The notes under the pieces were generated by a model that was given only the letters and a program-made list of their open reading frames with translations, was not told the origin of the DNA and made no database searches. Below are positions 1,039 through 23,036 of a DNA stretch of 25,265 bases, piece by piece. Both the position numbers and the translations under genes were made by a program. This DNA is from Clostridia bacterium (GTDB lineage Bacteria; Bacillota; Clostridia; HGM11514), in contig JAZURC010000156.1 of NCBI GenBank assembly GCA_045606005.1, forward strand, positions 1-25,265. The letters run 5' to 3'. The stretch's first letter is position 1; each line of letters opens with the position of its first letter.

Positions 1039-3489
1039 ATGGATAAAGGAATGAGAACGGATCGAATTGCAAAAGGGTTATTATTTTTCTCTTTTTTACT
1101 GTTTTTGGGATGGTTGAGTAAAGACGCAACAGTACCGCTTATCTATCCTGATGAGGCAGGATATATTGGCTGGGCAAAAATAATTGCCGGGAAAGCAGGC
1201 GACCACTTACACTATTCTCCGGGTTATAGCTTGTTGCTTGCTCCGATTTTTTTATTGACAGAGGACATACTGCAAGCATATCCTGTCATTATTAAGATAA
1301 ATGTTATCATAGGAGCCTTTATTCCTGTTTTTCTGTATCACCTGAGCGGATATTTCTGCAACGAAAAAGATGTAATCAAGAGAATGGGGATTGCAGTTTT
1401 GGCATCTCTTTATCCTACTGTTACTTCTTATGTACAGCTGGCACTTTCAGAAATTTGGTTTACCCTTTTGTTATTAGGCATAACCGGTTGTTTCTGCTCC
1501 TTGTGGAAGAACAGAAATCAGATAAGACTTTGGATATTATTACTTGTGTTATGTGTTTGGATTGTTTTCACTCATGCCAGAGGACTTGCTATAGGGATCG
1601 GTGCGTTGGTGACGGCTGTGGTTTTGTTTTGGGATAAAAAGAAGGAATTGCTGATAGGTGGTTTGATCGGTATATTGTTGATTGGTTGTACTGTTATGGT
1701 ATTATTGTCAGACAGAAATCATGTGGGAGCCGGCCATGTGCTGAACCAAATCAAACGCTTTTTCTCCATTCAAGGAATCGGTTCCTTTGTGACAACGATG
1801 ATTTCCCATTTTTGTTATTTATTTTGGGCTACTTTTGGTATGATTTCTGTTTCTATATATCGAGGGATAACGGCGATTTATAAACGGGAAAAAGGCTGGG
1901 GTGTTTGGGTTTTTATTTTAAGCAGCTTTTTTTTCATGTGGTGTCTTTCGGCGTTTTATATGAGCCATCATGAAAGACCCGTTCATATTTTATATGGACG
2001 TTATATTGATGTTGTGGTTCCGCTGTTACTGTTGGCTTTGTTTTCCGGCTGGGATAAAGTTCGGTTTCCCTGGTGGATTTGGATTCTTTCTTTCGGAAGT
2101 GTCATTGTCACCGGTATTTTATACAGCAACGCTACTCTTGGATTAGATGGCGGAATTATGAATTCAGTTGGAATGTTCTTATACCGAATGTGGTTGCATC
2201 ATTTTGAGTTTTGGTGGGTAGCTTTGTTTTTTGCTTTGATGACGGGACTCGTTTTCTTCATAGGGTATCGTCGCCGCAGTCTTTGCCTTTTTGCACTGGG
2301 AGCACTGTTTCTTTTTCAGGTGGGGTATATACAGAGTTCTTATTTTGAAAAGGAAGCTTCTGTGAAAAGACAAGTGCCCCAAGTGATTGCACATTTGCCG
2401 GAGAATGCAGCAGTATATGTATCTGATTTAGAAGGAGTGTTGCAATATACTTGGCAATACTATAACTATCCATTATACCGGCCGGATTTGAAACTAAGTA
2501 CCGAAGATACCGGTCAGCCTTATGTGCTTAGCCGGCAGTTAAAAGAATATGGAACATTAATTGCAATGGAAAAAGAAAATCCTGTTTATTTGTATCAAAG
2601 AGGGGTTGATGTACAGGGCTTGCAATATCCTGAAGAATTAAAGGAATACAAGGTTTCTTATTCTTGGAGACAAGCTTCGGACGGTATAGAGATAACGCTA
2701 AAAAACCATGGCTCCCCTTGGCTTTGCTTTGATGCTGTACGGGATTTAAAAAGTACGGTACGGTTAGGAGTAAGGTGTTTCAATGGAGAACAACACTTAA
2801 TATCAGATCAACGGTATGACTTTTTTAATAATCTGTACCAAGGGGATCAAGAACAATTTTATCTATCCGTTCCCTCCGAATGTTCAATGATAGAAATTCA
2901 GCCGGTACTGGAATTTACGGCATGGTTTTCGGAACGCGGCTGTGAACCCCTTTGGTTATGCCGGCGAGGAGATCAATGGCAGAAGATGGAGGAATTGGGA
3001 CCTGATTATAATCATGAATTCCGGAAAATAGAATTTTCTCATTTGCGGTATGTAGAGGAAATGGAGAATACGACTTATCAAAATACTTTAGTGAATTTTT
3101 ATTCTAACTATACAGGGACAGAGTCAAAAATCAAGAATATCAGAATGCCCTCAGGGGATTGGCTGATATTGCACACCGGAGAACCGGAACGGAGCGGGGT
3201 GAAAATATCTGTTAATGACCGTGCTCCTGTTCAGCCGGAACGGTACGACGACGGAGCCTATTATATTCCTTTAGAGGATACAATTACAACCATTACTTCT
3301 ATTGGGATAAGCTCAGATACGGTAAATCCGTTTGAGGAGAGTAAATTGCCCAAGGCTCTTTCTTTCTTATCTTTAGACAGTAATGTGAAACCCATTCAGT
3401 TTGCGGTGCACAGAATGGAAGATATTATGGGCAGAGATGTGAATCATCATGAATTTGGAATACGAATTGAAAAAATTGAGGTCAGATAG
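1039..3489 (+). CDS. Polytopic membrane protein, GT-C/ArnT/PMT-like glycosyltransferase candidate with large C-terminal extracellular region (816 aa)
   Basis: RBS AGGAGG upstream. Roughly a dozen hydrophobic segments in the first ~430 aa. YPDEAGY acidic motif after TM1 is typical of GT-C enzymes. C-terminal Ig-like segment (LKNHG...W...VRLG...WFSERG). Confidence 0.65.
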   Translation: MDKGMRTDRIAKGLLFFSFLLFLGWLSKDATVPLIYPDEAGYIGWAKIIAGKAGDHLHYSPGYSLLLAPIFLLTEDILQAYPVIIKINVIIGAFIPVFLYHLSGYFCNEKDVIKRMGIAVLASLYPTVTSYVQLALSEIWFTLLLLGITGCFCSLWKNRNQIRLWILLLVLCVWIVFTHARGLAIGIGALVTAVVLFWDKKKELLIGGLIGILLIGCTVMVLLSDRNHVGAGHVLNQIKRFFSIQGIGSFVTTMISHFCYLFWATFGMISVSIYRGITAIYKREKGWGVWVFILSSFFFMWCLSAFYMSHHERPVHILYGRYIDVVVPLLLLALFSGWDKVRFPWWIWILSFGSVIVTGILYSNATLGLDGGIMNSVGMFLYRMWLHHFEFWWVALFFALMTGLVFFIGYRRRSLCLFALGALFLFQVGYIQSSYFEKEASVKRQVPQVIAHLPENAAVYVSDLEGVLQYTWQYYNYPLYRPDLKLSTEDTGQPYVLSRQLKEYGTLIAMEKENPVYLYQRGVDVQGLQYPEELKEYKVSYSWRQASDGIEITLKNHGSPWLCFDAVRDLKSTVRLGVRCFNGEQHLISDQRYDFFNNLYQGDQEQFYLSVPSECSMIEIQPVLEFTAWFSERGCEPLWLCRRGDQWQKMEELGPDYNHEFRKIEFSHLRYVEEMENTTYQNTLVNFYSNYTGTESKIKNIRMPSGDWLILHTGEPERSGVKISVNDRAPVQPERYDDGAYYIPLEDTITTITSIGISSDTVNPFEESKLPKALSFLSLDSNVKPIQFAVHRMEDIMGRDVNHHEFGIRIEKIEVR

Positions 3490-8764: not shown

Positions 8765-8877
8765 TCAGGGTGTCGTCGGGGATGCAAAAAAGTCCAGACC
8801 GCAAAAAAGAAAGAAAAAGCAAATAAATACAAGAAATTGTAACGATATTTGGATTGTTTCTATTGAGAACAAGGAAG

Positions 8878-8902
8878 AAAAAACTTGAATTTCAAGTTTT
8901 TT
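8878..8902. repeat. Perfect 12-bp-arm palindrome
   Basis: AAAAAACTTGAA-T-TTCAAGTTTTTT. Could be an operator or a weak terminator. Confidence 0.6.
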
Positions 8903-8921
8903 CCCAATTTTAATCTTTTTT

Positions 8922-9013
8922 GCTATAAACAAACATCGCCTCTCGGCGTACCCCTGTACGCCTTCGGGTTTCCCAAAGCAAGGGAAAGCCTTGCTTTGGC
9001 TCAGTTTGTTCAT
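8922..9013 (-). repeat. Structured intergenic repeat, copy 1 (92 nt; candidate ncRNA or non-autonomous element)
   Basis: About 83% identical to 21297-21387. Stems GGCGTAC/GTACGCC (8945-8962) and CCAAAGCAAGG/CCTTGCTTTGG (8973-8999) are enclosed by ATAAACAAAC/GTTTGTTCAT. Strand inferred from G-U versus A-C asymmetry. Confidence 0.85.
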
Positions 9014-9165
9014 TCTGACTCTTTTTTCTATCCCCTAAAAATAGAGAGTGAAAAAATTTTTTACATTCTTAATGATCAGGTTGTTTATTCTGAACTATTT
9101 TTCGTCCACCCTAATAAAATATTCAGGGTGGGCGATTGTTTATATGAAAAAGGAGGTGTTGTCCC

Positions 9166-10449
9166 ATGGCGATGAGCCAGCCTTTGGCGGACAGATTAAG
9201 ACCCAAAACTCTGGACGATGTGGTGGGACAAGCCCACCTGTTGGGAGAAGGGAAAATTTTGCGGAGGCTGATTGAGTTGGGCAAAATTCCCAATATGATT
9301 TTTTACGGACCCTCCGGAACGGGAAAGACAACCCTTGCCAATATTATTGCAGGGATGACCAATAAAAAATTTTATCGGTTAAACGCCACCACAGCTTCCG
9401 TTTCGGATATTAAGGAGATTGTTTCCGAACTCGACACTTTCGAGGCAATGAACGGGGTGCTTTTGTACTTAGATGAAATTCAGAATTTCAACAAAAAGCA
9501 GCAGCAATCCCTTTTGGAGTTTATCGAAAACGGGAAAATCACCCTGATTTCCAGTACCACGGAAAATCCGTACTTCTATGTGTACAATGCGATTTTAAGT
9601 CGGTGCAGTGTGTTTGAATTTCAGATGGTTCCCCCTGAAGAGATTGCCCGTGCAGTGAACCGCGGGGTTTTGTTTCTGGCAGAAGAATTTCCTGAAAAAG
9701 AAGTGGTGTTTTCTCCTGAGGCGGTGGAGCATATTGCCCACAGTGCGGGAGGAGATGTGAGAAAGGCGTTAAATGCGACAGAGGTGTGTTTGTTTTCCGT
9801 GTTGGGAGCAGAGAAAAAGTGCGAGGTGACCTTAGAGGTTGCGGTAGAAGCCACTCAGAAAAAGGCAATGCGGTATGACCGTGACGGAGACAGCCATTAC
9901 GATATTTTAAGTGCCTTCCAGAAATCCTTAAGGGGAAGCGACCCTGATGCGGCGATTCATTATATGGCAAGACTGTTGGAGGCAGGAGATCTGCCCTCGG
10001 TGTGCCGTCGGATGCTGGTGACAGCAAGCGAGGATATCGGTCTTGGCTATCCCAATGCCATTGTGATAGCCAAAGCCTGTGTGGACGCGGCGTTGATGCT
10101 GGGGCTTCCCGAGGCTCGGATTCCCCTTGCAGAAGCGGTAATTTTGCTTGCAACGGCACCAAAATCCAATTCTGCCGTTTGTGCAGTGGATGAAGCCATG
10201 AATGATTTGAAAAGTCGGGATACAGGAGAAATCCCTTCTCATTTACGGGATTCTCATTACAGCGGTTCGGAAAAACTGGGGCACGGAAAAGGATATGTGT
10301 ATCCTCACAACTGTCCCAATCACTACTATCCTCAGCAGTATTTACCCGACGCCATTCGGGATCGGGTGTATTATCGTCCCGGACAAAATAAGTTTGAGGA
10401 CGGACTGGTAAATTATTGGGAACAAGTGAAACAAAAGAGAGAAAAATAA
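9166..10449 (+). CDS. rarA: Replication-associated recombination protein A (RarA/MgsA AAA+ ATPase)
   Basis: PLADRLRP start, Walker A GPSGTGKT, Walker B LDEI, TTENPYF, SAFQKSLRGSD and SEDIG motifs; RBS AAGGAGG. Confidence 0.95.
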   Translation: MAMSQPLADRLRPKTLDDVVGQAHLLGEGKILRRLIELGKIPNMIFYGPSGTGKTTLANIIAGMTNKKFYRLNATTASVSDIKEIVSELDTFEAMNGVLLYLDEIQNFNKKQQQSLLEFIENGKITLISSTTENPYFYVYNAILSRCSVFEFQMVPPEEIARAVNRGVLFLAEEFPEKEVVFSPEAVEHIAHSAGGDVRKALNATEVCLFSVLGAEKKCEVTLEVAVEATQKKAMRYDRDGDSHYDILSAFQKSLRGSDPDAAIHYMARLLEAGDLPSVCRRMLVTASEDIGLGYPNAIVIAKACVDAALMLGLPEARIPLAEAVILLATAPKSNSAVCAVDEAMNDLKSRDTGEIPSHLRDSHYSGSEKLGHGKGYVYPHNCPNHYYPQQYLPDAIRDRVYYRPGQNKFEDGLVNYWEQVKQKREK

Positions 10450-21247: not shown

Positions 21248-21296
21248 AATGTAGAAATTTGTTTTGCAACAAATTTCATGGAATGAATTGCTTTAT

Positions 21297-21387
21297 GCTA
21301 TAAACAAACATCGCCTCTCACCGTATCCACATACGGCTTCGGGTAACCAAAAGCAAGCCAAAACTTGCTTTTGCTCAGTTTGTTTAT
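21297..21387 (-). repeat. Structured intergenic repeat, copy 2 (91 nt)
   Basis: Stems CCGTAT/ATACGG (21321-21336) and CAAAAGCAAG/CTTGCTTTTG (21348-21373) are enclosed by ATAAACAAAC/GTTTGTTTAT; homologous to 8922-9013. Confidence 0.85.
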
Positions 21388-21415
21388 TATGCACTATTTT
21401 TCTCTAACCTCAAGA

Positions 21416-21455
21416 AGGGGCAGTAGCAAAACAACTTTGCTACTGCCCCTCTTTT
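21416..21455. terminator. Probably bidirectional intrinsic terminator
   Basis: Perfect 15-bp stem AGGGGCAGTAGCAAA/TTTGCTACTGCCCCT with CTTTT (plus) and TCTT (minus) tails, between convergent genes. Confidence 0.85.
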
Positions 21456-21472: not shown

Positions 21473-21622
21473 TTATTTTTTGTTTTCATCAACAAATTCC
21501 TTTGCATCCTCCACATTCTCCTGAGAGGGAATTGCTACATTGGTTCGTTTATCCCTTTTGTAGGATTCGGAAAGAGCATAGGTGTCATAGGGTTGAACAT
21601 TTTTTCTTTTTTCCGGTTTCAA
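21473..21622 (-). CDS. Small spore-associated protein, DUF3787/CDIF630_02480-like (49 aa; absent from the ORF track)
   Basis: TTG start 6 nt after RBS GGGGTGA. Translation MKPEKRKNVQPYDTYALSESYKRDKRTNVAIPSQENVEDAKEFVDENKK, whose C-terminal V.IPS...V..AKE.VD.N.K pattern I recognise from this family. sigma-G-like promoter upstream, terminator downstream. Confidence 0.72.
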   Translation of the reverse strand: MKPEKRKNVQPYDTYALSESYKRDKRTNVAIPSQENVEDAKEFVDENKK

Positions 21623-21641
21623 GATTTATCACCCCGGAATA

Positions 21642-21672
21642 TAGTATGACCGACATTATTCGATTTTATTCA
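21642..21672 (-). promoter_or_regulatory. Putative sigma-G (forespore) promoter
   Basis: Minus strand TGAATA-18 nt-CATACTA. The -35 overlaps the MATE stop codon. Confidence 0.65.
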
Positions 21673-23036
21673 CGGTCACCCAACGGTGCAATCACTCGAT
21701 TGTACAAGGAACGGTATCCGATTGCACAAATGATGACAGCGGCAATTTCTGCAATGGGAAATGCCAACCATACCAGATTCACATTTCCTAACTTCGACAG
21801 TAAAAACGCACTGGGAACCAGGAAAATCAGCTGTCTTGCAAAGGAGATTATCATGCTGAATACACCGTTCCCCATTGCCTGAAAGACAGAAATCAAAATC
21901 ACACATACGCTGGCGAATATAAAGCACAGACTGATGGTTCTAAGAGCCGGAACGCCAATGGCAATCATTGCAGGGGATGCATCAAATAATTGTAATAAAA
22001 ATTCAGGGAATATTTGGAACAACAACAGTCCCGCAAGCATAATGCCTGCTGAATAAAAAATGCTGTAGCGAATGGTTTTTGTAATTCTTGATCTTTTTTG
22101 GGCACCATAGTTATAGGAAACGATAGGCACCATACCGTTGTTCAAACCAAATATAGGCATAAAGATAAAGCTTTGAAGCTTAAAGTAAATTCCGAACACC
22201 GCTACTGCCGTAGTGGAAAAAGCAACCAAAATTTTGTTCATGGAAAAAGTCATGACAGAGCCCATGGCTGACATCAGAGTAGAGGGAATTCCCACAGACA
22301 AAATTTTCTTTAAAATCGTTATGTCAGGAAGGAAGGAACGAAGGGATACTTTGATTTCTTGGTTGCATTTGAGATTGAAAATCAAAGCCAAAACGGCACC
22401 GGCAATCTGTCCTGCAACGGTTGCGGCAGCCGCCCCTGCGATTTCCATACGGGGAAACCCAAATAACCCGAAAATTAAAATGGGGTCCAACAGTATGTTG
22501 ACGACAGCACCGGTTCCTTGGGCAATCATGGTATAAATGGTTTTCCCTGTGGATTGTAAAAGCCGTTCCAGCATGACCTGAAGAAAGCAACCAAAGGAGA
22601 AAACACAGCAAATGGTCAGATAAGAAACACCGTATTCAATAATTTCCGTTTCGCCGGCTCCTGCCTGTGCCGTAAAAAAGGGTTTTATCGCCGTTAAGCC
22701 AAGAATCAGGAATAAAAGATAACTGATAAAGCTGACGAGAAGTCCGTTTCCCGCAGTTTTGTTGACGGATTGAAAATCCTTTTGCCCCAAGGATCGTGAC
22801 AGATTGGCATTGACACCAACTCCCATTCCCACCGCCAGAGAAATCATCAGATTTTGCATGGGGAATGCAAGGGAAACTGCGGTTAGTGCGTTCTCGCTTA
22901 TCTGCGCCACAAAGATAGAGTCCACCACATTGTACAATGCCTGTACCAACATGGAAATCATCATGGGAATGGACATGGACAGCAACAGCTTATTGACAGG
23001 CATAATACCCATTTTATTTTCTTTTGGTTTGTTCAT
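21666..23036 (-). CDS. MATE family efflux transporter (456 aa)
   Basis: LSIPMMISMLVQALYNVVDSIFV, LNILLDPILIFG, GAAAATVAGQ and YNYGA patterns; about 12 TM segments. Start moved to ATG 23036 (RBS AGGTGA). Confidence 0.93.
   Translation of the reverse strand: MNKPKENKMGIMPVNKLLLSMSIPMMISMLVQALYNVVDSIFVAQISENALTAVSLAFPMQNLMISLAVGMGVGVNANLSRSLGQKDFQSVNKTAGNGLLVSFISYLLFLILGLTAIKPFFTAQAGAGETEIIEYGVSYLTICCVFSFGCFLQVMLERLLQSTGKTIYTMIAQGTGAVVNILLDPILIFGLFGFPRMEIAGAAAATVAGQIAGAVLALIFNLKCNQEIKVSLRSFLPDITILKKILSVGIPSTLMSAMGSVMTFSMNKILVAFSTTAVAVFGIYFKLQSFIFMPIFGLNNGMVPIVSYNYGAQKRSRITKTIRYSIFYSAGIMLAGLLLFQIFPEFLLQLFDASPAMIAIGVPALRTISLCFIFASVCVILISVFQAMGNGVFSMIISFARQLIFLVPSAFLLSKLGNVNLVWLAFPIAEIAAVIICAIGYRSLYNRVIAPLGDRE

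Follow-up and report, generated by a model that had tools for sequence, protein, structure and literature searches.

Why should two intergenic stretches of about 91 nt in a single contig of a Clostridia bacterium differ in sequence and keep the same base pairs? The preliminary description of this contig (25,265 nt, hereafter the window) aligned the stretches at 8922-9013 (copy A) and 21297-21387 (copy B), counted 15 substitutions and one indel between them, and proposed that selection acts on the fold of either a novel structured RNA or a non-autonomous mobile element. Our alignment reproduces these counts (82.6% identity), and the compensated base pairs are genuine. Stem A, stem B and a closing helix are found in both copies, the last being somewhat longer (about 11 pairs in the alignment) than the 10 bp originally given. 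The ends, on the other hand, had been drawn too tightly, as conservation runs about 10 nt further to the left and about 30 nt further to the right. As for the two interpretations offered, the mobile one is supported by our results, whereas an RNA gene has neither promoter nor Rfam support. We consider that the 91-nt stretch represents the folded core of a gene-less MITE of the hairpin-targeting IS1182 group in gut Clostridia, and would put the probability of this reading at roughly 0.7. The components of this reading are not equally firm: the element is very probably a mobile non-autonomous repeat, while its link to IS1182 is only somewhat better than an even bet. We favor a mobile element because of the multicopy, patchy spread, the existence of filled and empty sites, the inverted arms, and a sister family that combines an IS1182-family end with the duplication of hairpins.

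The expectation that many more copies would exist genome-wide proved right. The genome to which the window belongs (G000), a 1.35-Mb MAG in 180 contigs that is 87% complete, contains 11 copies of the element and one degenerate copy. With about 12 copies in this genome and more than 100 elsewhere, the likeness between copies A and B is far above chance. Among 41 relatives, the element was found in 12, patchily distributed over several families of the class. The number of matches per genome reaches 22 with the core alone as the query and 35-39 with longer queries, and congeners have up to about 35 copies. Two of the congeners, G003 and G005, have no match to the 106-nt core query and only single weak matches with longer queries. 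A wider survey, in which a pattern derived from stem A and its flanks was run on one-genome-per-species data, yielded at least 120 loci. Nearly all of them are in MAGs of gut Clostridia from ruminants, horses and humans, labeled as Oscillospiraceae, Acutalibacteraceae, Congzhengia, Candidatus Fimenecus, Candidatus Coliplasma and similar. The element was not matched in plasmid and phage collections, and only two contigs match it in IMG/VR. In metagenome DNA runs, related strains carry copy A, and head-to-tail junctions of units exist. In four metagenome runs, the contig word depth over the core (window 8916-9003) was 15-50 times that of the flanks, a measure of how abundant the core is across the organisms of those gut samples.

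The full unit, 130-310 nt in length, has a modular architecture consisting of an upstream hairpin (H1), the core and a T-rich right arm (D), with a left arm (U) present in 22 of 98 copies (Table 1). H1 occurs in every copy about 25 nt upstream of the core, and its sequence differs from copy to copy; the D arm is conserved in all 96 aligned copies. The U arm, 30 nt long, precedes the core by 40-116 nt (mostly 90-116) and forms an inverted repeat with the combined 3' strand of the closing helix (P1) and D arm; the reverse-complement control for this arm gave 0. In a hand alignment of consensus sequences, about 26 of 31 positions agree between the U module and the reverse complement of the D arm. 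The terminal inverted repeats comprise the P1 arms in all copies and the outer U/D arms of about 30 nt in 22/98. Copy A is a U-type unit that spans 8778 to about 9038. Across its entire length, copy B has 88% identity with another copy of the same genome (G000:C104:2635-2839), and its terminator hairpin H2 is called as a terminator on the plus strand. Hairpins of the H2 type are conserved (GGRGCTGTAGCAAAA ... TTTTGCTACAGCYCC) across distant genomes (window 21416-21450; loci L076, L084, L101, L123 and L138). Such a hairpin looks like the outer halves of both arms put together, and may be either a minimal derivative of the element or a favored target. The U arm directly follows the D arm in at least seven loci, and also in metagenome contigs. 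One copy (L027, G013:C5, about 1483-1770 of the locus) has some 170 extra bases at stem A, which suggests a nested insertion into the element's own hairpin. A coding reading was dropped, as the sole ORF over the element (8765-9013, minus strand) lacks an ATG and is frame-broken in copy B and others.

Table 1. Positions of the element's parts and of related features. Coordinates are those of the window, except for the sister-family copies, which are given as contig:position in G000.
Feature	Position	Strand	Details
U module, copy A	8778..8809	+	GGGGATGC, A-run, GTCCAGACCGC, A-run
H1, copy A	8875..8905	undirected	bidirectional-terminator shape; terminator-like call on the minus strand
Core, copy A	8922..9014	- (folds better there)	closing helix P1, 8924-8934 with 9004-9014
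Core interior, copy A	stem A 8945-8962; optional stem B 8973-8999		inner helix with tandem mismatch
Stem A, copy A	8945-8951/8956-8962
Stem A, copy B	21320-21326/21331-21337
Stem B, copy A	8973-8983/8989-8999
Stem B, copy B	21347-21357/21364-21373
D module, copy A	9012..9038	+	CATTCTG..T-run..TATCCCC
Insertion, copy A	8770..9080	+	311 nt, ATCAGG at both borders
Older remnant	9080..9135	+	right half: P1 3' strand and D-like arm, then a hairpin
Remnant hairpin	9103-9111 with 9127-9135		no T-run; immediately precedes the ribosome-binding site of the rarA-like gene
Copy B, long form	21248..21453	+	205 nt, starting one base past the galK stop codon
Copy B, parts	H1 21254-21277; core 21297-21387; D arm 21386-21412; H2 21416-21450		H2, terminator hairpin
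Sister-family copies in G000	C9:151, C26:5155, C38:1467, C62:3064, C82:151, C123:3902, C128:16043, C167:13596

The position of the copies relative to genes is strongly biased. Among the 93 copies preceded by a gene at no more than 400 nt, 82 have the orientation of that gene. When genes are present within 400 nt on both sides (68 copies), the element is found between convergent genes in 32 cases and between divergent genes in one; the downstream neighbor is convergent in 59 of 97 copies. The genes next to different copies are mutually unrelated. A riboswitch or a leader was rejected on both grounds, namely, the location downstream of genes and the lack of relationship between neighbors.

A comparison of filled and empty sites had been proposed at the outset, and orthologous sites devoid of the element were indeed found in congeners. 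None of the six congeners has the element at the site of copy A, between a 404-aa ORF and a rarA-like gene. G001 and G006 have the right-half remnant at 9080-9135 at their 'empty' sites too, and the remnant is therefore older than the new insertion of copy A. At another site, some 300 nt of the element (G000:C85) correspond in G006 to a 30-nt bidirectional terminator between two stop codons, and the site of copy B is occupied in G006 by an unrelated simple terminator. The site orthologous to G000:C152 has two tandem units in G001 and one in both G000 and G006. The flanks of the congeners' copies were also compared with G000 for further empty sites, most of which were taken by contig breaks. 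A clean target duplication was not found in the core family; the only candidates are ATCAGG at copy A and a 17-nt repeat in a foreign locus (L178), and at other sites the terminator has been replaced.

Clues to the origin of the element come from a second repeat, found at 9-16 places in G000, which has the stem A hairpin and the overall layout in common with the core family. Elements of this sister family are about 245 nt long and lie between direct duplicates of the host terminator hairpin (about 20-25 nt). In one clean filled/empty pair, the single terminator of G006 corresponds in G000 to a 245-nt element bordered on each side by the complete 21-nt hairpin. The assembly is broken at sister-family copies, as these often sit about 150 nt from contig ends. 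The initial remark that no transposase is nearby holds for G000, but related transposase genes are present in congeners. Fragments of IS1182-family transposases were identified in G001, G002, G005 and G010 (NCBIfam), and G003 has a 45%-identical protein match. In G002 (C6), the left end of the IS directly follows a gene's terminator hairpin, and an identical run of 18 bases is found in this IS end and in the left end of the sister family. For the U arm of the core family, the correspondence with the IS left end consists of a common 12-mer (AAAAAGTCCAGA) and a looser 13/16 match, whereas arm and IS disagree at their outermost tips (GGGGATG and TCAGACTGTCG, respectively). A full-length IS1182-family IS with a 503-aa transposase is present in another family of the class (L257, G127:C128, about 1385-3035 of the locus), where a complete 29-nt hairpin is directly duplicated on its two sides. 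The core of the element is absent from 16 IS loci. We did not find an IS1182-family transposase in G000 (87% complete), G004 and G006, nor in G021, G022 and G037, which are 98-100% complete and have 8-21 copies. Since MAGs often lose IS copies, the missing transposase represents weak negative evidence.

It would seem that the core family was derived from, and may be mobilized in trans by, a hairpin-targeting transposase of the IS1182 family (IS1272 group). Such a derivation is suggested by the resemblance of the left arm to an IS end, by the sister family that has both the same central hairpin and the IS end, and by the duplication of target hairpins in that family, just as in the full-length IS relative. 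The elements insert directly downstream of genes, in the terminator region, where they take the place of the native terminator hairpin or lie next to it, and they supply their own terminator-like hairpins. Their arms and internal hairpins would have to stay self-complementary, and compensatory changes would then arise in the absence of any dedicated encoded RNA. Self-complementarity may serve recognition or processing of the element as folded DNA, and may also keep transcription termination going after the loss of the native terminator.

The closest precedent is provided by IS1272 and TnSha1, members of the IS1182 family in staphylococci. Their targets are inverted repeats or terminator hairpins downstream of genes; the target hairpin is partly deleted or replaced on insertion, a fixed sequence preference is lacking, and IS1272 is reported to make no duplication (PMC4923244, PMC5678879). 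Terminator replacement such as that at copy B and G000:C85 is similar, and a related transposase and matching ends are present in congeners. However, the present element lacks a transposase and has a conserved folded core not found in the IS. Moreover, unlike IS1272, the related IS (L257) and the sister family duplicate the whole hairpin. Duplication of variable-length inverted repeats upon insertion is reported for IS1630, a member of the IS30 family in Mycoplasma; an IS30-family transposase was not found in five genomes of the genus.

The fold itself was assessed using an alignment of 96 distinct copies, in which a 28-pair structure was scored against shuffles and slid partners. On the plus strand, standard pairs account for 90.8% of the cells compared to 78.9% in shuffles. 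As many as 20 of the 28 pairs change on both sides (shuffle mean 15.4), so the covariation first noticed between two copies extends to the larger alignment. The covariation score is 0.258 versus 0.100 in shuffles, none of 500 being as high, and does not exceed 0.051 with slid partners. These values back the original proposal that selection acts on the fold. In the inner helix, two covarying pairs enclose a conserved tandem mismatch (T.C/C.T on the plus strand). Read from the minus strand, this mismatch is a tandem G.A in 87 of 95 copies, and in one lineage Watson-Crick pairs replace it. A box C/D-like motif had also been suggested; the G.A pairs are present, but the three-base bulge is not. 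We rejected a kink-turn or box C/D-like motif, as the tandem G.A is flanked by Watson-Crick pairs on both sides without a bulge and is fully paired in one lineage. The bases of the junction are invariant across bacterial families. Stem B, by contrast, varies freely in both sequence and length and is missing in about 15 of the 96 copies. Because of this, the three-way junction described for copies A and B is optional family-wide, and the minimal form of the core is one long hairpin with stem A at its cap.

Several observations point to the minus strand as the folded one. In plus-strand helices, there are 133 A.C oppositions versus 22 G.T, although the excess is concentrated at three alignment positions (elsewhere 24 vs 19) and many copies inherit the same state. 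Pairing cells amount to 95.3% on the minus strand, compared to 90.8% on the plus strand. According to RNAfold, the minus strand is favored in 92 of 96 cores (-33.3 vs -26.8 kcal/mol) and, when single hairpins are considered, in 53 of 63 independent stem B and 75 of 81 differing stem A sequences. We are therefore moderately confident that the minus strand is the folded one. RNA and folded single-stranded DNA would be alike in producing this strand asymmetry. The core also stands out in its identity between orthologous copies. One such copy in G000 and G006 is 96.5% identical (99% in the core), compared to 86-89% for the flanking genes, which suggests constraint beyond mobility. Between G000 and G001, the corresponding values are 90.7% for the core, 82-84% for the flanks and 81-82% for the remainder of the unit. 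Such core identity above that of the flanks could reflect constraint on the core, gene conversion or a small recent transfer.

Do these properties imply an RNA gene? The compensatory changes are genuine, yet they are expected of palindromic mobile elements. Covariation alone is not proof of RNA function because the paired arms of transposons co-vary for other reasons. At the same time, it is unusual for a MITE that the center is its most conserved part. One possibility would be that the closing helix, the tandem G.A and stem A with its invariant flanks form a selected, strand-specific folded module, either a minus-strand RNA or a single-stranded DNA structure read by the hairpin-seeking transposase or a host factor, that was captured by at least two miniature transposons and has stayed nearly unchanged across bacterial families. 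We regard this possibility as rather unlikely, and still more so the stronger version, in which the core would function as a structured RNA, be it a small-RNA family or a cis-acting module, made from the minus strand, ending at H1, and riding in or spread by a mobile element. The latter draws on the covariation, the better pairing and folding of the minus strand, the A.C excess, the tandem G.A, the invariant junction bases and the near-identity of the orthologous core, as well as on H1 of copy A, which scores as a minus-strand terminator. However, the A.C excess comes from three positions, and folded single-stranded DNA accounts for the asymmetry equally well. Stem B is dispensable, the unrelated neighbors do not fit a riboswitch or leader, and no promoter is conserved on either strand. 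The best -10 candidate on the minus strand is inconsistent between copies, a third of which lack its key T because this base co-varies within P1. Rfam gave no match at the gathering score for the whole window, and only chance-level matches for 8850-9170 with E-values up to 10, the best of which (0.072) was to an unrelated snoRNA model. Other candidates were considered and dropped: a TGCTATAAA promoter box, the final T of which is missing in all copies, and a sigma-H-like promoter match with wrong spacing; and, on the basis of sequence, hammerhead and other ribozyme cores, group II intron domain V, integron attC and attenuator pairing.

Two further explanations concern the way the element spreads. 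It could be a host-domesticated terminator cassette, similar to SPRITE or BOX, that is propagated by homologous recombination or gene conversion and kept for intergenic termination. Consistent with this idea, the element always resides in 3' regions, whole native terminators have been exchanged over the entire interval between two stop codons, a likeness to terminators is seen in H1, in H2 and in the core plus T-run, and new copies lie beside old remnants or form tandem units. We nevertheless find it improbable, as the sister family inserts with target duplication and has the end of a transposase-bearing IS, and the spread across bacterial families is patchy. In addition, the better-folding strand is antisense to the upstream gene, and for this reason termination of that gene fits poorly as the selected role. 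The least probable of the explanations, to which we give very little credence, is a hairpin repeat of the REP/REPIN type that a single-copy HUH (Y1) transposase would mobilize, a link that the preliminary description had raised together with RAYT and IS200/605. G000 does have one IS200-type Y1 transposase gene (C36:3142-3720), the central hairpin is the most conserved module and occurs in two repeat families, and G003, which has no match to the 106-nt core query, has no Y1 match either. But the IS200 copy of G000 has its own unrelated end hairpins with no element copy adjoining, and G002, the genome richest in copies, has only weak Y1 matches. Searches for TnpB, as well as IS110, found neither. 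Furthermore, the sister family makes target duplications, which HUH elements are not known to make. The Y1 gene of G000 sits between an RNase J-like gene and aroA.

The MITE interpretation places the element next to several well-known classes of bacterial repeats. Like Correia/CREE, RUP, ERIC and bcr1, it is small, non-coding, multicopy and intergenic, with inverted arms, long hairpins and variable presence. The differences are that here the center rather than the ends is most conserved, that the left arm, stem B and H2 are optional, and that the element is tied to terminators with no short fixed target duplication seen. With SPRITE and BOX of Streptococcus pneumoniae (PMC3049150) it shares the nature of modular terminator-like repeats located after genes, but the sequences are unrelated, and only here is there a link to an IS end and a folding bias on the strand antisense to the upstream gene. 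REP/BIME/REPIN elements with RAYT are similar in having a short conserved hairpin, a mosaic arrangement and strand-asymmetric mismatches; here, however, there is no RAYT flanked by copies, the units are larger, and target duplications occur in the sister family.

Taken as a whole, the element is an ordinary kind of bacterial repeat, present in dozens of copies behind genes, rather than a demonstrated new RNA gene. The result accounts for a class of intergenic regions, rich in helices, of uncultured gut Clostridia. Such regions could be taken for new RNA genes, since mobile hairpin repeats give rise to compensated changes as well. The hairpin-targeting IS1182 group, which has been little studied, would gain a non-autonomous branch. 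Elements of this kind remodel the terminators of ordinary genes and so affect the annotation of gene ends and operon prediction, as well as assembly, since contigs break at these repeats. What remains of particular interest is the conserved, minus-strand-biased core common to two element families. A separate observation concerns galK, the gene preceding copy B in the window. At locus L058 of G006 (C45), no more than some 30 bases from the end of galK are left beside the small-ORF/MATE region, immediately before the orthologue of window 21473-22400; galK appears to have been deleted there.
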